From an uncultured Candidatus Micrarchaeota archaeon (GTDB taxonomy: Archaea; Micrarchaeota; Micrarchaeia; Anstonellales; Bilamarchaeaceae): a stretch of 64,000 nt of DNA. The stretch covers positions 12,313-76,312 of the forward strand of contig CAWDBH010000005.1 in assembly GCA_963800555.1 (NCBI GenBank), in the 5' to 3' direction. Made by a program: the position numbers and the translations under genes. The notes under the pieces are model-generated. The model was not told the DNA's origin. It did not search any database and worked only from the letters and a program-made list of their open reading frames with translations. Within the stretch, counting starts at the first letter, position 1. The number at the start of each line of letters is the position of its first letter. Below are positions 15 through 44,790 of the stretch, in pieces.

Positions 15-2543
15 GTGAACGCCCTTTTGGATAAAGGATGGGTAGGTAAGGAAGTGCTCCTATCGCTCAGGCCGCACCATACCCAATCGGACATCGCCGA
101 AGCTTTCCTGGAAATGAACGACAGGGCAGATGACGCTTTCGCCAGGCACGGGATCACCGCCAGGCATGAGTTCGTGAAGATACTGCTCATCGCATCTTAC
201 GGCGCATTCGAAGGGGATCTCAGGGTCATCGATCCCGAGTTCGGCATCGAGAATCTCAGCCACTATCTGCTGAGGGAAACGGATTTCGCGGATTCGAGGG
301 TGTACAATCCGAACCTCGGAGGGCTTGAGAGGCTGGAGAAAATATTATCCAGCGAAAGATTCGACCTGGTCGGCGTGTGCCCGATAGTCGTTGAGAACGA
401 CGTGGAGATAATGGCATTGGTCAGCCGCCTCAATCCGGACGCGTTGAAGGTGGCTGGAGGGCCGCTGTTCTTCGCCAGCCCCCCGGAAGATTTCCTCCGC
501 TCATTCCCGATAGACGTGGTCGTCAGAGGCCCGGGCGAGGAGGCATTGGCGCGCATCGCGCAAACGCTGTTCAGGAAAGAACCGATCTCGGATTTGAAAG
601 GGCTCTGGTCATATGAGAACGGGAGGATCACGCACACGGGCGATTTGAAACTCCTGGCTGAAGCGGCATTGGAGAACCATCCGGAGGATGTGCCCGTCAG
701 GATAGAGGATGTCTACCATGGCGTCACATATCTCAAGGCGCGCAAAAAGAAATCCACGGTCCAGGGAGACCATATCGGCTCGAAACCCATCCCTATCCAG
801 ATCACCGACCATTGCCGGGGGAGATGCTTATTCTGCGAAACCCCCAGGAACACCATGCGGATGGGGAAGGAGGGCAGGATCGCGGCTGCGCGAGCCGCCG
901 TGGAGAGGATAAAGAAGGAATTGAAGGAGGACACATCGGAAGGCCATGAGCCGCATGATGCGGTCCAGATACTGGATAACAACTTCACGACCCATCGGAA
1001 GGTGGTGGAGGAATTCTGCCATGAGGTGATAAGGCAGGGGATCCAAGGCATCAAGAAATCCTGCAAGGGGAGGGTAGACGAGTTCTGCGTCAGCCGGGAG
1101 TCTCCGGTGCCAGACAGGGAATTCATAGGCCTGATGGCGCGCGCAGGGTTCAAACGGATATACTTCGGCAACGAGAGTTTCGTGCAGGGCGCGCTGGACA
1201 GCATGGACAAGGGGATAACCGTGGAGCAGAACGAGAACGTCCTGCAGGCGGTCATCGATGCAGGCATCATCCCGGGCATGAACCTGATACTCTTCGGAGG
1301 GCTACATGACCGCCCCGCGGATGCGCTCCATACTGTGAGGAGGGCGCTCCATTTCATCGAGAAGGGAGCAACGGCGAATGTGGTGGGACGCATGTATGCT
1401 TCAGAGAGGGCGCTGCGCAAGCATCCGGAAAGGATCGGTTTCGAAACTCTTGATAGACCGGGCATGAGGGCGCCGTATAAGATGCTGAGTATGGTGTACA
1501 CGAACGCGGAGCTGGAAGCTTTCGCGGACAAGGCGGCAGCCGAATGCGAGAGCATCCTGAAATTCATCGGATACAGATATCCGTTCGAGACATTCTCCAC
1601 TCATGTGAAGGCCCTCGCCTTGTTCTGGGCGGTCGCGCACGTCTCTGGTGAGGACGAGCTCGCTGAGAAGGCCGAATGGCTGATTGACGACCACATGTGC
1701 GCGCAATCTAGGAACGTCCACCCTTATCCGAAGATCCCTTCGGTCCTGCAGAGGAAGATGCGCTATGCTTTCATAGACGGCATCTACGGTGAAGCGATAC
1801 AAGCGTATAACGAGCATCTGGAAGAGCTGGTCGGCGCGAACCCCGGGAGATTCGCTGTTTCCGGGGTCGAACCCGGGGACCTGAAGATGGATCCGTTGAA
1901 GCCGGTCATCGACATCGGTTCCCTTGCGAACGATTTATCCGTTGTGATAGGGAAGATGGAGCGGGATCTGGGAAGGCCGCTGAGGATACGCATGGCTGGA
2001 TATCCCGCGACCGGGAAAACCATGCTGCGCAACCAGCTGATAGCCCGCGGCATGGATCTCAAGCTGGTCCATCTGGACAGATACCGGCAGGTGCAAGGCA
2101 GCCAGATGATGCTTGGGATCGCCCAGGTCGAAACGAGCTATGATATGCCTGGGATCGAGAGGGGCCTTGAAGAGACTTCCGGAGAACGGTTATTGTACGA
2201 AGGGACCTGGGTACTGGCACCCGAATTCAATTTCGGAAAGAGATGGGACCTGTCGCTGGCATTCGATTTCCCCAGGCAGGTCTGGACGCCTTCGTTATGG
2301 TTCAGGCAGATATTATTCAGAGGAAAGGAGATTGACGCATTGCTCCCATCGAAAGAGCAATTGGAGGTTTACGATGCCGCATATGCCAGGCATATCGTAG
2401 ACCGGCTGTCGGACGCGGACCTGGTGATAGGCCCCGGAGGTGAGTTCAGATCCAATGGACACGTATCCTATCTGCTCGAAGAAGCGGGGATAAGACGTTT
2501 CAAGACTTCCTTTTTCATGGACCAGTTAAGGCACTTCAGATGA
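15..2543 (+). CDS. B12-binding-type radical SAM enzyme fused to a C-terminal P-loop uridine-kinase/PRK-like domain (frame open to window edge, possibly 5' partial)
   Basis: 842-aa ORF. It has the rSAM cluster motif CRGRCLFC (CxxxCxxC) after a Rossmann-like segment FDLVGVCPIVVEND..VVVRGPGEE, as in cobalamin-domain rSAM enzymes. The C-terminus has Walker A MAGYPATGKT, then LVHLDRY, LLYEGTWVL and DLSLAFD in the order seen in uridine kinase/phosphoribulokinase folds. There is no in-frame stop between position 3 and the GTG at 15. Confidence 0.7.
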   Translation: MNALLDKGWVGKEVLLSLRPHHTQSDIAEAFLEMNDRADDAFARHGITARHEFVKILLIASYGAFEGDLRVIDPEFGIENLSHYLLRETDFADSRVYNPNLGGLERLEKILSSERFDLVGVCPIVVENDVEIMALVSRLNPDALKVAGGPLFFASPPEDFLRSFPIDVVVRGPGEEALARIAQTLFRKEPISDLKGLWSYENGRITHTGDLKLLAEAALENHPEDVPVRIEDVYHGVTYLKARKKKSTVQGDHIGSKPIPIQITDHCRGRCLFCETPRNTMRMGKEGRIAAARAAVERIKKELKEDTSEGHEPHDAVQILDNNFTTHRKVVEEFCHEVIRQGIQGIKKSCKGRVDEFCVSRESPVPDREFIGLMARAGFKRIYFGNESFVQGALDSMDKGITVEQNENVLQAVIDAGIIPGMNLILFGGLHDRPADALHTVRRALHFIEKGATANVVGRMYASERALRKHPERIGFETLDRPGMRAPYKMLSMVYTNAELEAFADKAAAECESILKFIGYRYPFETFSTHVKALALFWAVAHVSGEDELAEKAEWLIDDHMCAQSRNVHPYPKIPSVLQRKMRYAFIDGIYGEAIQAYNEHLEELVGANPGRFAVSGVEPGDLKMDPLKPVIDIGSLANDLSVVIGKMERDLGRPLRIRMAGYPATGKTMLRNQLIARGMDLKLVHLDRYRQVQGSQMMLGIAQVETSYDMPGIERGLEETSGERLLYEGTWVLAPEFNFGKRWDLSLAFDFPRQVWTPSLWFRQILFRGKEIDALLPSKEQLEVYDAAYARHIVDRLSDADLVIGPGGEFRSNGHVSYLLEEAGIRRFKTSFFMDQLRHFR

Positions 2544-3890
2544 ATTCCGGGAACGATAAGTGGAATTCGACTTCTGGGTATGTTCTCTTGATGTCGAGCA
2601 TCCAGTCCAGGTCCAGGATCTGCCTCTCGGAAGAGCAGGCATGGCATTTCATCGTTTGCTGTTGGATGCGCCGTATATTATCCGGGGTCCAGACGGATTC
2701 GAAGCTGCGGGGCCCCAGTTCTGAAGTGTACCAGAAGTCCGGGTTCTCAGTGACGTCCGGATAGAAGCGGCAGGCCGTCATTTTCGCGGCGTCCTCGCTT
2801 CCATACATCGGATGGATGCTCGGCTGGAGCAACGCGATCAGGCATGTCTCCCGCGCTTTCCTTTTTCTTGGATCGAAATAGTATTTCGCATCATCGACTC
2901 TCTGGTTTATCTTCAGGGGCGACCGCACATATGTCCCTGATCCCGAGAAGGCGTTTTGCAGCGAGGCGAGCTCCTCTTCGGTACTTCGGCACGCGCCTGG
3001 TGAGAACCGGATGCCGTGGGATTTGAGGTTCGGGAGGATCGGATTGAAATGGACATAATCCACTCCCGTATCAACGAGCCTTGAGACGAATTCCATATAG
3101 TGCCCGCCATTCTCCGGATGGACGAGGGAGGTCACACCGAGCAGCATGTCTTTCGAGCGCCCGAGATCCTTCCGTTTGGAGGCGATAGACTGGATAGTCT
3201 TCAATATCCGCTCGAGCGTGATGCCTTTCGGAGGGGATTCCAGATTCCTGAACGCCTCTTCGTGGATCCCATGGATGCTGAACGTCAGGATGGAGGAGTT
3301 CCTGGCCACGCAATCGACGAATCCCTGATCTGCCCTGCTGCCGTTGGTGGTCAGGAAAGTCAAGATGCCTTTCCCCCCTGAGAATTCCATGATGCGGTCG
3401 AACTCCGGGTGGAAGATGGCCTCTCCGGATGCCCCGGAGGATATATTCTGCGCGAGCGGCCCGCCGAAACTGAGGAGATAATCCAGGGTCTGCAGATAGG
3501 TGCCGGCAGAGAGATCCGTGATTCCTTTGTTTCGTGGTCTTTCCGGCTGAAACAGAGGGTGCATGCGAAATTGCAACGATTGGTGAGGGTGGTGAATATC
3601 TGCAATGGCATGATCCGCTCGCCTTTCAGGAACCGCTCGACTGCGGAAGCGTAATCCAGAGGGGATAGCGGATAGAAGTCGTTCGGGTGGGCGTCCCTCC
3701 GTGCGCGGATATTGCCATCCACCGCCGCGATGATGCCGGAGAAAGGCCTGAAATAATATCCTACCGAGCTCAATCCCTGGATTTTCTTTTCCTCCGGAGA
3801 AAGCTCGGCGGCTTTGACCAGCCGGTCAGGCTCTGCCATGCGGAATATCTCTTTCCGCGCATTCATCACGATGTTTTTCTGCGCAAGCAT
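2536..3890 (-). pseudogene. radical SAM protein interrupted by a single frame disruption near 3540-3550 (track ORFs 3360..3890 plus 2536..3576)
   Basis: The upstream ORF carries CNFACTLC (CxxxCxxC) and then becomes low-complexity text. The overlapping ORF resumes with rSAM-core-like NKGITDLSAGTY..SGASGEAIFHPEF..TFLTTNGS..TFSIHG. The ATG at 3890 lies 4 nt after the stop of the upstream rSAM gene. Confidence 0.55.
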
Positions 3891-3894
3891 ATCC

Positions 3895-5022
3895 TCACCT
3901 GATGATCCCGAGATCCACGAAGCAATCCTTCAGGATGCAGACCGCATTGCACCGGCTGAGCGTCTTCAACGGGCCGATATTCTCGAGCGTCTCCCAGAGA
4001 TTGTCCGGAGTCACATCGGAGAGCGGTGTCCTCGACCCTTCGAATGCCGAAGAAGCGAGATACGGGCAGAAATAGACCCGCTCATCCGGACCGATCACCA
4101 CCCCGTAATCCCTCGCGGCGGTGCACTCGCTGATCGCCGGAAGCCGATTGTACCAGTTGTTCCTCAGCTTGACTACGAAATCAGGGCGAAACTCCTTGAA
4201 GGAGATGTCACCGGCCAGCAGTGTTTCCAATGCCTGGGCCAGATCAGAACTGTTCCCATCGTCCAACTTCGGGACCCCGGGATGAAGGTAAAACGGGAAT
4301 TGGAGACGCAGGAGAGAGACGCCGCGGAGCGAATTCAGGTATTCGATAGTCCATATCAGATCATGGGGGATGTGGCCCGCATCCAATGACAGATCGGAGA
4401 TTATCCAGTCCACATTGATCTGCATGGAGGACCCTTTCCTGGATTTCATTTCAGCCGCTTCCTCGAGTTTCCCCATGAGCAATCCGAGGTTCCCGGTTTC
4501 CCGGCAACCATGCACCCGGCGATATACTTCACCCAGGCGGGGATCGGCCCCGAGGGGAGAATCGATGCTGAGATTCAGCCAGTCGTTCGGGGTATTATCC
4601 GAGGTCAGGAGATCGATGTCCTCGCTCTTGAGCAGGATGCCGCTCGTGGACAGCCCTGCGGCGATCCCCCGCTCTTTCGCCTTATGGATCAATGAACGCG
4701 TCACTTCCGGATTCAATGTCGGCTCCCCGGTCATGCCGGAGATGATCACCCTCCACATCCCGATGGTGGGGTCTGCCCGGTCGTCATAGGCGGAAAAGAC
4801 CCGATCGACCAGGCCGGCAGACATCTCTGGAGGCTCGCTCCCCCAGCTTTTCCGAAACGGCAGCCCCTGGCAGTGCGGGCATGCGAAATTACACTTGGAA
4901 GACGGATGGAATTCGAGCGTGATCGAGCGCCTGAACTTATTGTCGCTGTACGACCAAGGCTGGGTCTTTCCTAGGATGGTGATGTCTTCCCCCACGGCTT
5001 TGAATGAGCGTTGTATAGTCAT
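3895..5022 (-). CDS. radical SAM protein
   Basis: Cluster motif CNFACPHC and SAM-binding-like ISGMTGEPTLNPE, with C-terminal extra cysteines (FCPY..CNAVCILKDC). I prefer the ATG at 5022 (MTIQRSF) because TATA-like boxes lie 25-65 nt upstream. The track start at 5109 remains possible. Confidence 0.7.
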   Translation of the reverse strand: MTIQRSFKAVGEDITILGKTQPWSYSDNKFRRSITLEFHPSSKCNFACPHCQGLPFRKSWGSEPPEMSAGLVDRVFSAYDDRADPTIGMWRVIISGMTGEPTLNPEVTRSLIHKAKERGIAAGLSTSGILLKSEDIDLLTSDNTPNDWLNLSIDSPLGADPRLGEVYRRVHGCRETGNLGLLMGKLEEAAEMKSRKGSSMQINVDWIISDLSLDAGHIPHDLIWTIEYLNSLRGVSLLRLQFPFYLHPGVPKLDDGNSSDLAQALETLLAGDISFKEFRPDFVVKLRNNWYNRLPAISECTAARDYGVVIGPDERVYFCPYLASSAFEGSRTPLSDVTPDNLWETLENIGPLKTLSRCNAVCILKDCFVDLGIIR

Positions 5023-5116
5023 GAAGATGCGACCCTGACGGCATATCCTATGTGATGGACTCTTTAAAAAGACACAAGCTAACACTTTATATGACCGGTT
5101 AGGCCGCATGCGTGGA

Positions 5117-5863
5117 TTATTTCATCGGCCTGGAAGCAGACCACAGATGCTCGAAATATTTCGTGAATGAATCGCGGACGAACTTATCCGCTATCACGGT
5201 TGCGACAGGCGGATCGCTATAGACCATGATGGCTACTTTATCCGAGTATATCAGTATCTCGGTTATCATGTCCGCGGCTGAAGGAAGGAGACGGAGCTCC
5301 GTGTATCTCGGACTGGCGAGAGGTATGGACATCCGGAAATCGCTGTTCAGCAGCAGCTTTTCCTTGACCCTGGTCTTCTTGACCTGCATGATGAAACTTT
5401 CCCAGAACTCGGCGCCGAGTATCTCCACGGATGCGTTCGAGACGCCCATGCCGAGGTAAGAGCCGGAACCCAACACCTCCCGCAAAAGACCCTTGAACGC
5501 TTTCCTGCCGCTGTATATCATGGCCGACTGCTTCTGCTTCGATTTCGCGAGCTCGGCGGATATCTCCGGCATGATGGAACGCGCGATGCTTCTCCTCCCC
5601 TCAAGCTCGACGGATTCGCGCTCGAGCATGCTGTTTATGGATTCTGGCGGGGCGACCGCGAACTTGCGCTTCCCGCCTTCGTTGATGTATGTGACAAGAC
5701 CCCGCTCTGAGAGTTTGTCCAGGTTATCGTATATTATATTGCGGTGGAAGCCAGTTATCTTCACCAGCTCGCTGGCTATGGAAGGGCCGTTCTTAAGGAG
5801 CGCCAGGAGGACCTTGGCCTCGTTCCTGTTGAGGCCGATCCGTTCCAGGTCGGATGAGTGCAT
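5117..5863 (-). CDS. TrmB-family HTH transcriptional regulator
   Basis: N-terminal LERIGLNRNEAKVLLALLKNGPSIASELVKITGFHRNIIYDNLDKLSERGLV is a typical TrmB winged helix. The gene is 248 aa and is divergent from the ThyA-like gene. Confidence 0.8.
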   Translation of the reverse strand: MHSSDLERIGLNRNEAKVLLALLKNGPSIASELVKITGFHRNIIYDNLDKLSERGLVTYINEGGKRKFAVAPPESINSMLERESVELEGRRSIARSIMPEISAELAKSKQKQSAMIYSGRKAFKGLLREVLGSGSYLGMGVSNASVEILGAEFWESFIMQVKKTRVKEKLLLNSDFRMSIPLASPRYTELRLLPSAADMITEILIYSDKVAIMVYSDPPVATVIADKFVRDSFTKYFEHLWSASRPMK

Positions 5864-5906
5864 GCATATATCGTGTAAGGAAGGTAATTAAATTGCTGTC
5901 ATAGGT

Positions 5907-5916
5907 TGTTGCAACA
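5907..5916. promoter_or_regulatory. 10-bp perfect palindrome TGTTGCAACA between two divergent TATA-like boxes (candidate operator)
   Basis: It lies between TTTAATTAC (minus-strand sense, about 25 nt upstream of the 5863 start) and GATAAATAC (about 28 nt upstream of the 5953 start). Both genes therefore look leaderless. Confidence 0.3.
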
Positions 5917-5952
5917 GAGAGATAAATACCTAGTGATAGAAGCTAACTTGTC

Positions 5953-6840
5953 ATGGAGATAGTGACGAGTTCCCTGGAGATAGCGTTCTATTCATTGCTC
6001 GAAGGATTCGCATCCGGAGATGCGCATGAGGTTTCCCCACGGGGACAGAAGAGCAAGGACCTCGCGAATTGCCAGTTCATCATGGAGAACCCGCGTGATA
6101 GGCTCATATCCAACCATATAAGGAATGTGGACCTGGCTGCGATAATCGGCGAGACGCTCTGGTATCTTAGGGGGAGCGACTCTTTGGATGAAATCACGTA
6201 TTATCTGCCGCGGATGAGAGAGTATAGCGATGACGGAGCCACGATAAACAGTGCATATGGCAAACGGCTCGTGCGCATGAAAAGAATCACGGAACAGCTG
6301 CGACTGGACCCGGACACGAAACGGGCATGCTACCCAGTCCTCTCTGCCAGCGATTTGGAATCGCTTCCGGATACGAAAGATTTCCCGTGCACTCTTGGAG
6401 TGCAGTTCCTCAACCGCGGCAGCGGGCTTGATATGATAGGATATATGCGATCATGCGATGTTTTCTGGGGCCTCCAGCACGACGTTTTCTTCTTCACGTT
6501 CCTGCAGGAGATGATAGCGCTGGAGACAGGTGTGCAACTTGGAAGCTATCGGCACGTGGCGGGAGTATTCAACCTCTATGAGAGGCATTACGAGAAGGCC
6601 GGGATGATACGGCAGAGCCCCAAGGAGATCAGCACTCCGATGGCTCCGCTTGAGCGCTTGGATGAACTCGAGGAGCTGAAGCGGCAAGAACCCCTCATCC
6701 GCAGCGGGAGCGATGGTCGCGAGCTCAAGGATGAGCTGCTCGAGGATTTCCGGCTCGTGCTGCTCCACAAGCGGACAAAGGATGACGGCTATCTCAGGGC
6801 AGTATCCACAAAAGCCATCAAGAGGGTCGTGGGCCGATGA
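5953..6840 (+). CDS. thymidylate synthase (ThyA) / pyrimidine-C5 hydroxymethylase family protein with Asp at the Asn177-equivalent position
   Basis: FPCTLGVQF (catalytic Cys146 context PC..QF) and RSCDVFWGLQHD align residue-for-residue with E. coli ThyA R166-S-C-D-V-F-L-G-L-P-F-N177. LWYLRG and SAYG motifs are present. There is a roughly 70-aa acidic C-terminal extension. Confidence 0.8.
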   Translation: MEIVTSSLEIAFYSLLEGFASGDAHEVSPRGQKSKDLANCQFIMENPRDRLISNHIRNVDLAAIIGETLWYLRGSDSLDEITYYLPRMREYSDDGATINSAYGKRLVRMKRITEQLRLDPDTKRACYPVLSASDLESLPDTKDFPCTLGVQFLNRGSGLDMIGYMRSCDVFWGLQHDVFFFTFLQEMIALETGVQLGSYRHVAGVFNLYERHYEKAGMIRQSPKEISTPMAPLERLDELEELKRQEPLIRSGSDGRELKDELLEDFRLVLLHKRTKDDGYLRAVSTKAIKRVVGR

Positions 6841-7547
6841 TCAGGGGCAGGGAATTCGCCAAGCGATGGCGGGAGCATGTGCAGGGCGATGGCAGCATGA
6901 TAAGGATGAAACTCCTCAATCCGAAGCTGGATAGCCTCATCGGGGACATCGAAGGCAGTAGAGCGTTGGATATCGGGTGCGGTGAGGGATTTTCGACCAA
7001 GCTCTTGGTCAACAGAGGAGCAGATGTTATCGGGGCGGATGTCAATCAATATTCGGTCGGATTCGCTGCTGGAGATATCAAGGGAGCGACTTTTCTGGTC
7101 GCGAACATAAATGAGCTGCCTTTTTTGCCTTCCAGTTTCGATCTGATATTGTGCTGCAATGTGCTGATGAACTCTTCGGAAGATGAGATGAGGGGAGGGA
7201 TTGTGGAATGGTGGAGAGTGCTCGCCCCTCACGGACGGGTCATCGCCACGATAATACACCCGCTATATTCGCTATTCGGCAACGGGTTCGCCGGAAAGGA
7301 GACCGGGCAGGTCAGACGTTATGGACTCAACGAAGAGATACGTGTGGACACCGTGGCAGGGTTCGGGGATTTCGCCGAATACCGGAGACCACTAGGCTGG
7401 TACGCCAAGGCGTTCACCGATGGCGGTTTCTGCATAAAATCTTTCGATGAGGTTATCCTCTCGAGATTCGAAGGCATCTGCGAGAAGCACGAGAAACGGG
7501 TAGGGCTGCCGATATTCGCGGTATTCGAGTTGGGCAAGATAGGTTAG
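6837..7547 (+). CDS. class I SAM-dependent methyltransferase
   Basis: Motif I ALDIGCGEGFST followed by VIGADVN. The ATG overlaps the ThyA-like stop (ATGA), which indicates translational coupling. Confidence 0.8.
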   Translation: MIRGREFAKRWREHVQGDGSMIRMKLLNPKLDSLIGDIEGSRALDIGCGEGFSTKLLVNRGADVIGADVNQYSVGFAAGDIKGATFLVANINELPFLPSSFDLILCCNVLMNSSEDEMRGGIVEWWRVLAPHGRVIATIIHPLYSLFGNGFAGKETGQVRRYGLNEEIRVDTVAGFGDFAEYRRPLGWYAKAFTDGGFCIKSFDEVILSRFEGICEKHEKRVGLPIFAVFELGKIG

Positions 7548-7782: not shown

Positions 7783-8697
7783 ATGGTGTTCATAAGAGAG
7801 AGGAAAAAAGGCGTCACGACGTATTACGAGGCAGTAGAAACGGTACGTGAGAATGGAAAGGTCAGCCAAAGAACCCTCCAGTACCTTGGAACCAGGAAAA
7901 AGATGCTGGATTACTGCAAACGGCATGGGATGAAACCTCCAAACGAATCCGAATTATTGGATAAGCATACCGCGACTATCCTCGAGAAGAAGCTGGCCCG
8001 CTTGAACAAGATGCGGCCCCTTTCCCAGAACACGCTGGAAAGCCTGAGGAAAAAGTTCGAAGTCGAGATGACGTACAACTCCAATGCCATAGAAGGGAAC
8101 CGGCTGTCCCTCAAGGAAACCTTCCTGGTGCTCGAGAAAGGGATGACGATCGGCGGGAAATCGGTGAAAGAGCATCTTGAAGCGGTGAATCACAAAGAAG
8201 CAATCCTGTTTCTTGAAAGATTAGCGGACAGGAAGAATGAGATAAAGGAAGCGGACATACTCCAGCTCCATTCTATCATCCTGAGCAAGATAGACCCGCA
8301 GAATGCAGGATTCTATCGGCAGGAACAAGTCTACATAACCCAGTCTACGCACCGCCCACCATCATTCAAAGAAGTGCCGACATTGATGAAAAAGGTTCTG
8401 GATGAGCTGAATTCCAAGGGAGATGGAAGGAAAGCCGTAGAATCCGCCACAAGATTGCATCATCTTCTCGTTTGGATACACCCGTTTGTCGACGGGAATG
8501 GAAGGGTTGCTAGGCTCCTCACTAATTTGCGCCTGATGCGTGCGACGTTCCCGCCGATAGTTCTGCAAAAGAAAATCAGGATGACTTATTATCGCGCCCT
8601 TGAAACCGGAGACGGCGGGGATCTGAAGCCTCTGGCGGGACTTATCGCGCGGGATGTGGGGCGGGCATTGGATCTCTATCTCGAAGCCGCAGGTTAG
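7783..8697 (+). CDS. Fic/DOC family protein (AMPylase-type active site) with internal inhibitory-helix motif
   Basis: Active-site motif HPFVDGNGRVARLL (HxFxDGNGRxxR). An upstream SNAIEG matches the (S/T)xxxE(G/N) inhibitory motif. Confidence 0.9.
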   Translation: MVFIRERKKGVTTYYEAVETVRENGKVSQRTLQYLGTRKKMLDYCKRHGMKPPNESELLDKHTATILEKKLARLNKMRPLSQNTLESLRKKFEVEMTYNSNAIEGNRLSLKETFLVLEKGMTIGGKSVKEHLEAVNHKEAILFLERLADRKNEIKEADILQLHSIILSKIDPQNAGFYRQEQVYITQSTHRPPSFKEVPTLMKKVLDELNSKGDGRKAVESATRLHHLLVWIHPFVDGNGRVARLLTNLRLMRATFPPIVLQKKIRMTYYRALETGDGGDLKPLAGLIARDVGRALDLYLEAAG

Positions 8698-42274: not shown

Positions 42275-43201
42275 ATGGACAAGAAGGTCAGGCGGATAAT
42301 CGCGGACATCAAATCCCTCAAGATCCAGGGCGCGAGGAACGTCGCCAAGGAATCGCTCAACGCCCTCATCATCGAAGCTGAAGAGGGGTATGTGAAGAAA
42401 CCCTCGTGTCTTGTCAAGAACGTATCGCTCGCCGCGGAGTCATTATCCAAAAGCAGGCCCACCGAACCTATGATGAGGAACCTCATAGGAGCGAGCATGG
42501 TCTTCCTCAAGGAAGAGCACGCCCGTGGAGCCAAGGCCTTGCAGCTCAAAGACGCGTATGTGCAGCACGTGCGCGGCATGTTGGCTGATATGGATAGCGA
42601 TGCGAAAAAACTCGCGTCCTATGGCGCGAAGCTCATACCCGACGACGCGCTCGTCCTCACGCACTGCCATTCATCGAGCAGCACGAAGATACTCATAGAA
42701 GCGAAAAGGATGAAGAAAAGATTCTCGGTCGTCTGCTTCGAGACGAGGCCGAGGTTCCAGGGCCGCACCACGGCTACGGAGCTCGCGAAGGCAGGCATAG
42801 ACGTCACGCTCACCGTGGACGGGGCCATGAACATGTTCATGAAGAAGGCGGATATCGTCTTCGTGGGCGCGGATTCCGTCACATCGCGTGGCGACCTGAT
42901 CAACAAAATCGGCACCTCCACTCTCGCGCACATAGCGCGCATGAACGACGTCTCGTTCTACAGCGCGGCCGAGCTCTCCAAGTACAGCCCCATGACCATG
43001 CATGGCGAGAGGGAAAAGATAGAGGAACGGGACCCGAAGGAGGTCTGGGACAAGCCGCCCAGGGGGCTGAAGATAAGGAACCCGGCGTTCGAGGCCACGG
43101 CGGCCAAATACATAAACGGGTACGTCACAGAATCTGGAGTGATACCCCCTGAATCGTTCTTCTCCATGGCGAGCAAAAAACTCCTCATCAGGATAGATTG
43201 A
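42275..43201 (+). CDS. e2b2: ribose-1,5-bisphosphate isomerase (eIF-2B alpha/beta/delta family)
   Basis: IQGARNVAKESL and VFVGADSVTSRGDLINKIGTS. It is directly coupled to the AMP phosphorylase gene. Confidence 0.75.
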   Translation: MDKKVRRIIADIKSLKIQGARNVAKESLNALIIEAEEGYVKKPSCLVKNVSLAAESLSKSRPTEPMMRNLIGASMVFLKEEHARGAKALQLKDAYVQHVRGMLADMDSDAKKLASYGAKLIPDDALVLTHCHSSSSTKILIEAKRMKKRFSVVCFETRPRFQGRTTATELAKAGIDVTLTVDGAMNMFMKKADIVFVGADSVTSRGDLINKIGTSTLAHIARMNDVSFYSAAELSKYSPMTMHGEREKIEERDPKEVWDKPPRGLKIRNPAFEATAAKYINGYVTESGVIPPESFFSMASKKLLIRID

Positions 43202-43227
43202 AAAACATTGGATACGATGTGAATATT

Positions 43228-44790
43228 ATGGTCGAATACGTCGAGAAGGAAATCAAGAAGGTCGATGTCTGGAAATTCAAGAAGTTCGTGTGCAAAGTCA
43301 AGCCCATAGACATATACACTGGGAAGAACGTCGTTGTGCTCAACAAGAACGACGCCCAGGACCACGATATCTACTGGGGATACCGCACGGAGCTATGCGC
43401 TGGCAACAAATGCTTCATAGCGATAGTGGATGTCAGCGACGAGATAGTGAAGCCGGGCGAGATAGGCGTCTTCAGGGACGTCGCGGAGTCCAACAAGCTG
43501 AAGAGAGGGGACGAGGTGGAGATAGTCCACATGAACCAGCCCGAGTCGATAAAATACATCAAGAAGAAGCTGGACAAGGGCGCGCTTTCCGACTCCGAGA
43601 TCAAGACCATAGTCAAGGAGATAATGCAAGACCGTCTCAGCGAGATAGAGACCTCGTCGTACATAACAGCCGCTTACATAAACGGTTTCACGGACGAAGA
43701 AGTGATATCGCTGGCCAACGCCACTGTGGAATCCGGCGAGACGCTGGACCTCGGGAAGAAACCGATACTGGACAAGCACTGCATAGGCGGCGTGGCCGGG
43801 AACAGGACCACCATGGTCGTCGTGCCGATAATCGCCGCTGCCGGCATGTACATGCCCAAGACATCCTCGCGTTCCATCACATCTGCATCGGGGACCGCGG
43901 ACACCATGGAGGTGCTCTGCAAAGTGACGTTCAACATCGACGAGCTGCGCTCCATCGTCCTCAAGGCCAAGGGCGCGATAGTCTGGGGAGGCGGGATGAA
44001 GCTCGCTCCCGTAGATGACAAGCTGATCAAGATACGCCACCCGCTCAGCCTCGACCCGGAAGGCATGCTGCTCGCGAGCATCCTCGGCAAGAAGAAGAGC
44101 GTCGGGGCCGAATATGTCCTAATCGACATCCCGGTCGGCAGGGGCGTGAAGGTGCCGTACATCGAGAAAGGCAACGACCTGGCCAGGCATTTCCTGCGGG
44201 TCGGGGAGAGGCTCGGGATGAAGATCGAGGCTCTGATAACCGATGGCGCGGAACCTGTCGGCAACGGCATAGGGCCGGGATTGGAATGCGTCGACGTTCT
44301 GCAGGTCCTGGGCGGCAAGGGTCCGGATGATCTGCGGCACAAGAGCCTATTGATGGCAGGCAAGCTCCTCGAGCTGTGCGGCAAGGTCGATAGCGGGAAA
44401 GGCTACGGCGTGGCGGAGGACCTGCTGAATTCGGGGAAAGCCGAGAAGAAATTCAGGGAGATCATCGAGCTCCAGTGCGGGAACCCCAAAGTGAAGGAAT
44501 CCGACATCAAGATAGGCCAGTACAGCCAGGTGGTCAATTCCGAGGTCAGCGGGAACATATTCCACATCGACAATAAGGCGATGTCGAAGATCGCGCGCAT
44601 AGCCGGAGCGCCTAGGGACAACGGGGCCGGCGTGCTGCTCCACCGCGTTCGCGGAGACCGGGTCGAGAAAGGGGATTCTCTTTTCACGATATACGCCGAG
44701 AGCGAGGCGCAGCTGGATTTCGCTCTCAAAGCGCTGAAAGACCTCGAGCCCATAGAGATGAGGAAGATGCTCCTCGGAAGCGTTGAATGA
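43228..44790 (+). CDS. deoA: AMP phosphorylase (thymidine phosphorylase family)
   Basis: An archaeal-type N-terminal extension (KVKPIDIYTGKNVVVLNKNDA), plus DKHCIGGVAGNRTTMVVVPIIAAAG and TSASGTADTMEVL. Confidence 0.8.
   Translation: MVEYVEKEIKKVDVWKFKKFVCKVKPIDIYTGKNVVVLNKNDAQDHDIYWGYRTELCAGNKCFIAIVDVSDEIVKPGEIGVFRDVAESNKLKRGDEVEIVHMNQPESIKYIKKKLDKGALSDSEIKTIVKEIMQDRLSEIETSSYITAAYINGFTDEEVISLANATVESGETLDLGKKPILDKHCIGGVAGNRTTMVVVPIIAAAGMYMPKTSSRSITSASGTADTMEVLCKVTFNIDELRSIVLKAKGAIVWGGGMKLAPVDDKLIKIRHPLSLDPEGMLLASILGKKKSVGAEYVLIDIPVGRGVKVPYIEKGNDLARHFLRVGERLGMKIEALITDGAEPVGNGIGPGLECVDVLQVLGGKGPDDLRHKSLLMAGKLLELCGKVDSGKGYGVAEDLLNSGKAEKKFREIIELQCGNPKVKESDIKIGQYSQVVNSEVSGNIFHIDNKAMSKIARIAGAPRDNGAGVLLHRVRGDRVEKGDSLFTIYAESEAQLDFALKALKDLEPIEMRKMLLGSVE

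Follow-up and report, generated by a model that had tools for sequence, protein, structure and literature searches.

In a 64,000-nucleotide stretch of the genome of an uncultured Candidatus Micrarchaeota archaeon (contig CAWDBH010000005.1, positions 12,313 to 76,312; hereafter the window), a gene of the thymidylate synthase (ThyA) family encodes a protein, P0001, that is probably a folate-dependent cytosine-nucleotide 5-hydroxymethylase of the MilA/BcmA branch and would catalyze the first step of an accessory pathway together with a partner methyltransferase. This kind of enzyme is already known. What is new is its occurrence in archaea, the change in its sugar-contact residues, and a module with a coupled methyltransferase and no glycosidase. 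In the following, G000 denotes the source assembly (1.46 Mb, 86% complete), other G numbers denote genomes, and L numbers denote the loci of relatives of the window enzyme P0001.

P0001 has a Pfam Thymidylat_synt domain (E 1.9e-18), and its numbering runs in register with that of E. coli ThyA. Translation and alignment showed that Cys146 lies inside TKDFPCTLGV and that residues 166-177 (RSCDVFWGLQHD) match Arg166 to Asn177 of the E. coli enzyme (RSCDVFLGLPFN) without gaps, as the initial annotation of this DNA had described. The last residue of this segment is the base-specificity position, and the Asp in place of Asn that had been read there from the GAC codon is indeed Asp177. Previous work has shown that this Asp (Asp186 in MilA) marks the use of cytosine in MilA, BcmA and T4 dCMP hydroxymethylase (dCH), and that the uracil-using enzymes have Asn (PMC5175136); the parallel with the T4 enzyme drawn at the outset agrees with these data. 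The core residues of ThyA are kept in P0001 (C146, R166, D169, E67 as the Glu58 equivalent, and Y102 as the Tyr94 equivalent), and with R30, K123, R124 and Y209 they make up the conserved set of catalytic and phosphate ligands. The gene is under purifying selection (dN/dS 0.11-0.18).

To place P0001 among the known enzymes of this fold, sequence searches, a structural model and phylogenetic trees were used. The best match in the PDB by sequence was MilA (E 1.1e-34), the CMP 5-hydroxymethylase of mildiomycin biosynthesis in Streptomyces rimofaciens (PDB 5b6d, 5jnh, 5jp9), followed by a thymidylate synthase (5.5e-15). The AlphaFold2 (AF2) model of P0001 had a predicted local distance difference test (pLDDT) score of 95.2, and Foldseek again returned MilA as the best match, with a template modeling (TM) score of 0.87-0.89 over about 317 columns that included the C-terminal domain. 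Thymidylate synthases gave TM scores of 0.60-0.67. MilA and P0001 share the catalytic Cys, Glu, Tyr, Arg and Asp, the Asp at the base site, the Lys at position 133' and the C-terminal helical domain. On the other hand, P0001 is only 29-31% identical to MilA, comes from an archaeal host, and has Ser167 for Ala176 and Asn207 for His216. About 8-10 residues that MilA has inserted ahead of its phosphate-binding KR motif are missing from P0001, its C-terminal domain is shorter, and its gene lies outside any peptidyl-nucleoside antibiotic cluster, with no MilB partner in G000.

The initial annotation had pointed to an acidic C-terminal extension of about 70 residues that E. coli ThyA lacks. The region is distinct, and P0001 is 31 residues longer than E. 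coli ThyA, but it is not net acidic: the C-terminal 74 residues (222-295) contain 15 Asp or Glu and 16 Lys or Arg. In the model this region forms helices at 236-250, 261-275, 278-282 and 287-294, and E246, R250 and L258 are invariant when it is aligned with the MilA clade. An extra C-terminal helical domain is found in MilA, and is not found in ThyA or T4 dCH (PMC5175136). In P0001 a helical domain that superposes on that of MilA replaces the C-terminal tail that closes over the folate in ThyA.

The close family of P0001 has eight other sequences with 56-80% identity, and the next tier has at most 49%. All named members of this family are Candidatus Micrarchaeota. In both a FastTree tree of 197 sequences and an IQ-TREE LG+C20 tree of 67 sequences, the nine archaeal sequences formed a clade (support 99-100) that was sister to, and not nested within, a clade (support 99) containing MilA and C. 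sporogenes BcmA. T4 gp42 and E. coli ThyA were far from the archaeal clade in both trees. The best viral relatives had 39% identity in IMG/VR and 35% in GenBank phages, and none was close; a viral origin of the P0001 gene was therefore rejected.

Relatives of P0001 are annotated as thymidylate synthase in several sources. An ordinary, divergent archaeal thymidylate synthase that converts dUMP to dTMP and tolerates Asp would fit the Pfam domain, the finding that this gene is the sole PF00303 gene of the assembly, and the Asn that a close homologue, P0006, has at the specificity position. We consider such an enzyme highly improbable here. The best score of P0001 against the NCBIfam thymidylate-synthase equivalogs was 53.8 bits with a cut-off of 327, and further models were also below their cut-offs (TIGR03284, 51.9 and 108; TIGR03283, 37.5 and 175). 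About 20 genomes of the same genus do not have the gene, which is a poor fit to a housekeeping enzyme. Moreover, the G000 assembly encodes ThyX, and because ThyX fills that role, P0001 is not the thymidylate synthase of the cell. The ThyX gene itself (G000:C9:35826-37091, outside the window) has two tandem Thy1 domains in one open frame of 537 residues and appears to be a duplicated or fused ThyX.

Asp at this position is not routine in the canonical archaeal ThyA of this phylum. In the sampled genomes of the phylum (n=301), 15 further genomes had weak matches with 21-28% identity to P0001. Ten of these matches, retrieved as loci, were canonical ThyA (8 of the 10 with E values of 1e-60 to 1e-81 against E. 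coli ThyA), and all ten had Asn at the end of the R-S-x-D-x7-N motif. By contrast, Asp was present in 180 of the 194 retrieved relatives of P0001. Judged from these sequences, Asp177 is thus neither a matter of chance nor a lineage-wide quirk. P0001 shares the fold and the numbering (Cys146, Arg166, position 177) with E. coli ThyA, in which Asp at this position (the N177D/N229D mutants) switches the base preference to cytosine, but it differs in TM score (about 0.65), in Asp177, Lys123 and Asn207, in the C-terminus, in falling below all NCBIfam cut-offs, and in belonging to a genome that uses ThyX. Taken together, the kinship with MilA in sequence, fold and trees, Asp177, the NCBIfam scores and the presence of ThyX support the cytosine nucleotide, rather than dUMP, that the initial annotation had suggested as substrate, and the base that P0001 acts on is very likely cytosine. 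That annotation had noted neither the relationship to MilA and BcmA nor the coupled methyltransferase, the glycosidase fusions of relatives, or the unusual residues Ser167 and Asn207.

The residues around the catalytic cysteine also bear on the chemistry. The motifs N-S-x-Y (S100, Y102) and D143-F-x-C are common to P0001 and T4 dCH, whereas E. coli ThyA has G-P-V-Y and L-A-P-C; D143 is thus Asp as in T4 dCH (Asp145), where E. coli ThyA has Leu. Ser94, Tyr96 and Asp145 of T4 dCH are the proposed ligands of the water molecule by which the exocyclic methylene is hydrated (PMC6400193). The polar water-holding motifs in P0001 would favor hydroxymethylation over reductive methylation, and we consider hydroxymethylation the likely chemistry. 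An alternative is that P0001 is a cytosine-nucleotide C5-methyltransferase which, by ThyA-type reductive methylation as in the N177D/N229D mutants of ThyA, would produce 5-methyl-CMP or 5-methyl-dCMP and dihydrofolate. Asn-to-Asp mutants of ThyA bind dCMP (PDB 1njc, L. casei N229D with dCMP), and all of the core catalytic residues of ThyA are present in P0001. Nevertheless, such a reaction is quite improbable for P0001, in which the MilA-type domain has taken the place of the tail that, in ThyA, closes over folate so that hydride can be transferred, the polar residues of the hydroxymethylases (PMC6400193) are present, and the nearest characterized relatives are both hydroxymethylases.

The hydroxymethylase candidate is part of a compact unit of three genes. 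A TrmB-family regulator gene is divergent from the enzyme gene, and the 89-nt spacer between them is a putative shared promoter/operator. On the other side, the stop codon of the enzyme gene overlaps the start codon of a class I S-adenosylmethionine (SAM)-dependent methyltransferase gene (ATGA at 6837-6840). DNA homology of 76% to two Micrarchaeota contigs (L011, L103) covers exactly positions 5119-7537, that is, the three genes and nothing else, and the same 2.4-kb unit of TrmB, enzyme and methyltransferase also occurs at L111, making four lineages with the window. At L114 at least the enzyme and the methyltransferase are present. At L001-L004, L011, L103 and L111 a TrmB orthologue is likewise divergent from the enzyme gene, at a distance of 90 nt, and at L001 and L004 a nucleotide N-glycosidase domain is inserted after the divergent spacer, not before it. 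Within the family, orthologues of the methyltransferase (67-70% identity) were found in no genome that lacks the enzyme, and each lies immediately downstream of it. Both partners are under purifying selection, with dN/dS of 0.12 for TrmB and 0.20-0.23 for the methyltransferase.

The distribution of the unit is patchy. Among species-representative genomes of the 301-genome phylum sample, only G000 and G059 had a close match, and G320 and G321 of the same family also carry the enzyme. In G000 the module lies beside radical SAM and Fic genes, unlike in the relatives, where the neighbors are an RsgA-like GTPase, a peptidyl-prolyl isomerase (PPIase), BacA and RuBisCO. Because the neighborhood differs and these neighbors of the relatives are on other contigs in G000, the unit has moved as a block, and its position suggests a variable, accessory part of the chromosome.

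In other members of the archaeal clade the enzyme is linked to a nucleotide N-glycosidase. P0002 and P0006 (455-456 residues) have a 157-residue N-terminal domain fused to the enzyme, and at L005 and L092 this domain is encoded on its own, by a 152-residue gene immediately before the enzyme gene. When a profile of this domain was compared with the whole PDB, the only matches that rose above noise were CMP/hydroxymethyl-CMP (hmCMP) N-glycosidases: BcmB (1.2e-5), followed by MilB and BlsM. The Ser-x-Gly-x3-Glu catalytic segment is conserved in the domain, which has Ile-Ser/Thr where MilB and BcmB have Phe-Arg/Lys, the pair that recognizes the hydroxymethyl group (PMC4081090). The glycosidase is fused or adjacent in four other lineages (L001-L005, L012, L092).

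These arrangements resemble the bacimethrin operon of C. sporogenes, in which bcmB-bcmA-bcmC is followed by the genes for thiaminase I and thiD (PMC5627462). P0001 is 36% identical to C. sporogenes BcmA (bcm genes are found in Clostridium botulinum/sporogenes and Paenibacillus), and as in that operon the enzyme gene is followed directly by that of a class I methyltransferase; the order glycosidase, hydroxymethylase, methyltransferase at L004 is that of bcmB-bcmA-bcmC. Indeed, of 80 enzyme-related loci in species-representative genomes, nearly all of them bacterial, 57 have BcmB-like, BcmC-like or ThiD neighbors. When a BcmC-like profile (25 members) was run against every open reading frame (ORF) of G000, the window methyltransferase was the best match (30.2 bits, E 1e-7; the next had 18.4), and the alignment reached beyond the SAM-binding core. 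No curated NCBIfam family assigns this methyltransferase, and the PDB gave generic class I similarity only. With 22% identity to C. sporogenes BcmC by BLAST and these NCBIfam and PDB results, it was not accepted as a BcmC orthologue, although the profile match is suggestive. The serine hydroxymethyltransferase (SHMT) of G000 is a source of methylene-folate.

In about 21 actinobacterial loci, a MilA-like hydroxymethylase is encoded alongside two partners, a BcmB-like glycosidase and a kinase resembling ThiD, and without a BcmC-like methyltransferase. Such a cassette would phosphorylate 5-hydroxymethylcytosine rather than bacimethrin. To our knowledge, this hydroxymethylase-glycosidase-kinase cassette of actinobacteria has not been described.

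The sugar of the substrate is a separate question. Lys133' and Ala176 are associated with ribose preference in MilA and BcmA, and Arg and Ser with deoxyribose preference in ThyA and T4 dCH; the A176S mutant of MilA lost most of its CMP activity and gained dCMP activity, and the CMP activity was abolished only when K133R was added (PMC5175136). With Asp, Lys and Ser at the three specificity positions, P0001 corresponds to the MilA A176S mutant. The Lys that contacts the ribose 3'-OH in MilA is present as Lys123, and the equivalent of Tyr218 as Tyr209. In 51 of 52 bacterial homologues encoded beside BcmB-like, BcmC-like or ThiD genes, the four positions are Lys-Ala-Asp-His, and for this reason we regard the window enzyme as a real variant. 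Within the archaeal clade, the basal members P0007-P0009 have Ala at position 167, and P0008 and P0009 have Lys-Ala-Asp-Asn at the four positions. Asn or Asp at position 207 was found only in the nine archaeal sequences among the 195 aligned. P0006 (codon AAC at L004:9006-9008, the same gene as L012) has Asn at position 177, where the other eight members of the clade have Asp; it is a natural revertant at the base-specificity position, is otherwise 75-76% identical, and still has the methyltransferase downstream. By ancestry the substrate would be CMP, and Ser167 makes dCMP possible.

If the substrate is dCMP, P0001 could feed 5-hydroxymethyl-dCMP into the deoxynucleotide (dNTP) pool, so that the DNA of the archaeon or of a resident element contains 5-hydroxymethylcytosine as in the T-even phages, with the methyltransferase acting at a later step or in something unrelated. 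ThyA and T4 dCH, which prefer deoxyribose, have Ser at the position of Ser167, and it is with Ser there that MilA gained dCMP activity (PMC5175136); the T4-type residues D177 (Asp179), S167 (Ser169), S100, Y102 and D143 are all present in P0001, with motifs identical to those of T4 dCH, and the surroundings of the module are variable, with a Fic gene, radical SAM genes and insertion sequence (IS) elements. We nevertheless regard a role of this kind as unlikely. P0001 keeps Lys123 where T4 gp42 has the phosphate ligand Arg123', and MilA required K133R on top of A176S before its CMP activity was abolished (PMC5175136). The archaeal clade groups with MilA and BcmA, very distant from T4 gp42, which does not have the helical C-terminal domain; there is no phage context, and the identity to viral proteins is low, as given above. 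Sister sequences that likewise have Ser167 carry a fused nucleotide N-glycosidase domain, which would break the nucleotide down. Finally, no kinase for hydroxymethyl-dCMP (hm-dCMP) and no glucosyltransferase is seen within the module, and in the relatives the module lies among chromosomal housekeeping genes.

Several results weigh against the proposal that P0001 is a cytosine-nucleotide hydroxymethylase of a bacimethrin-like pathway. The Ala that leaves room for ribose at position 176 of MilA is absent, and His216, which binds the CMP 2'-OH with Tyr218 in MilA, is replaced; because both Ser167 and Asn207 depart from MilA and BcmA, the substrate may be either CMP or dCMP. W172 and H176 in the folate pocket differ from the residues of both ThyA and MilA, so that methylene-tetrahydrofolate is a presumed one-carbon carrier. 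The node that joins the archaeal clade with the MilA/BcmA clade has moderate support (84 in FastTree, 82 in IQ-TREE C20), and the likeness of the methyltransferase to BcmC is weak. No glycosidase was found in the window, in G000 or in G320 by protein search, by tblastn with archaeal and clostridial queries, or by a profile search in which the positive controls G059 and G321 matched at 1e-86 to 1e-93. No ThiD (PF08543) was found in the 86%-complete G000 assembly, whereas all 14 control genomes matched, and tblastn of G000 with C. sporogenes ThiD and thiaminase I gave no match. Because the glycosidase is absent from G000 and G320, and BcmD/ThiD and thiaminase I are absent as well, the analogy with bacimethrin biosynthesis is incomplete. 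The archaeal module also differs in having a TrmB regulator in place of the bacterial context. Nonetheless, the glycosidase-free combination of enzyme and methyltransferase is the commonest architecture in the archaeal clade; it is thus no relic of gene decay, and the nucleotide itself may be what the methyltransferase modifies.

We propose that Cys146 of P0001 would attack C6 of a cytosine mononucleotide while Asp177 would bind and protonate the N3/4-amino edge of the base, and that C5 would receive the methylene group of 5,10-methylene-tetrahydrofolate, after which this group would undergo hydration instead of reduction. The reaction would yield 5-hydroxymethyl-CMP (or 5-hydroxymethyl-dCMP) and tetrahydrofolate. 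The mobile unit of the TrmB-like regulator, the enzyme and the translationally coupled methyltransferase would encode a small accessory pathway, in which the methyltransferase would methylate the hydroxymethylated pyrimidine to give a bacimethrin-like or otherwise methylated 5-hydroxymethylcytosine compound. A bacimethrin-like end product is the best-informed guess, if a doubtful one.

How the base would be released is suggested by another gene of the window. An AMP phosphorylase is encoded at 43198-44790 (+; TIGR03327, 611 bits, above the cut-off), and together with a form III RuBisCO (contig C16) it points to the archaeal nucleotide-salvage (pentose bisphosphate) pathway. The AMP phosphorylase family, as in the Thermococcus enzyme, also phosphorolyses CMP. 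By analogy, release of the base without a dedicated glycosidase would be possible, and the AMP/CMP phosphorylase of the cell might carry it out. As a speculation, some Micrarchaeota, which belong to the DPANN archaea, may have a mobile glycosidase-independent route in which a variant form of cytidylate hydroxymethylase and the methyltransferase dedicated to it, under a TrmB-type regulator, produce a methylated 5-hydroxymethylcytosine compound. The product could be a bacimethrin-like thiamin antivitamin or a previously undescribed modified cytosine nucleotide. As it has no ThiD, a producer of such an antivitamin would itself be insensitive.

If P0001 acts as proposed, cytosine hydroxymethylation of the MilA/BcmA type, described to date only in bacteria and phages, would extend to DPANN archaea, and a glycosidase-independent hydroxymethylase-methyltransferase pathway would be without precedent in Archaea. 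A thiamin antivitamin from an episymbiont would be of ecological interest. Automatic annotation labels the gene as thymidylate synthase, which would mistakenly ascribe a second route to dTMP to these archaea with their reduced genomes and would hide a pathway of secondary metabolism or nucleotide modification. In addition, the archaeal clade offers a natural experiment on sugar specificity, with Ala replaced by Ser at position 167 and His by Asn at position 207, and with one Asp-to-Asn revertant.

Table 1. Features of the window enzyme and its module, with the loci of the actinobacterial cassettes (window positions unless a locus is named).
Feature	Position	Strand	Basis
ThyA-fold enzyme P0001, 295 aa, predicted MilA/BcmA-like cytosine-nucleotide 5-hydroxymethylase	5953..6840	+	Pfam, AF2 model, PDB, trees
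Lys123 codon, equivalent of MilA Lys133' (Arg in ThyA and T4 dCH)	6319..6321	+	alignment; PMC5175136
Cys146 codon, catalytic nucleophile, within D143-F-P-C146	6388..6390	+	alignment; PMC6400193
Ser167 codon (Ala176 in MilA/BcmA; Ser in ThyA and T4 dCH)	6451..6453	+	alignment
Asp177 codon GAC, base-specificity position (Asn in ThyA)	6481..6483	+	translation, alignment
Asn207 codon (His207 in ThyA; His216 in MilA, T4 dCH; sugar-hydroxyl ligand)	6571..6573	+	alignment
Helical domain at the C-terminus (residues 222-295), homologue of MilA helices alpha9-alpha13	6616..6837	+	alignment, model, superposition
TrmB-family helix-turn-helix (HTH) regulator, divergent, first gene of the module	5117..5863	-	Pfam TrmB E 1.8e-13
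Divergent intergenic region, 89 nt, presumed shared promoter/operator	5864..5952	.	conserved spacing
Class I SAM-dependent methyltransferase, 236 aa, dedicated partner	6837..7547	+	Pfam Methyltransf_11 E 2.8e-18
Actinobacterial loci with hydroxymethylase, glycosidase and ThiD-like kinase	L014, L015, L018, L021-L025, L034, L037-L041, L050-L052, L059-L063, L066, L069, L078		

The genes around the module in the window were also inspected. The neighboring radical SAM genes were rejected as part of the conserved unit, since the homology ends at 5119 and 7537 and the neighbors in the relatives differ. Two radical SAM-like reading frames lie between the TrmB gene and a B12-radical SAM gene, a position that they have only in G000. 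One (3895-5109, -; 404 residues) has weak, sub-threshold likeness to the models of a tungsten-cofactor maturase and of prokaryotic viperins, and the other (2536-3890, -) is apparently split into two overlapping frames of 346 and 176 residues. The B12-radical SAM gene (15-2543, +) is an 842-residue ORF with B12-binding, radical SAM and C-terminal P-loop segments (GYPATGKT ... VHLDRY). The P-loop segment resembles kinases of the uridine-kinase/PRK type; Pfam finds only the B12-binding and radical SAM domains, and the ORF is outside the module conserved with the relatives. The gene that immediately follows the module (7783-8697, +) encodes a protein with a Fic domain (Pfam E 1.2e-20).

The metagenomic contig of P0008 (L113) shows a third type of context for the archaeal clade, with neither a glycosidase nor TrmB upstream. 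The gene upstream of the enzyme (L113:690-1268, 192 residues) was rejected as a glycosidase; its N-terminus is receiver-domain-like (MLIIDDD ... DIILLDFVL) and looks like the receiver of a response regulator.

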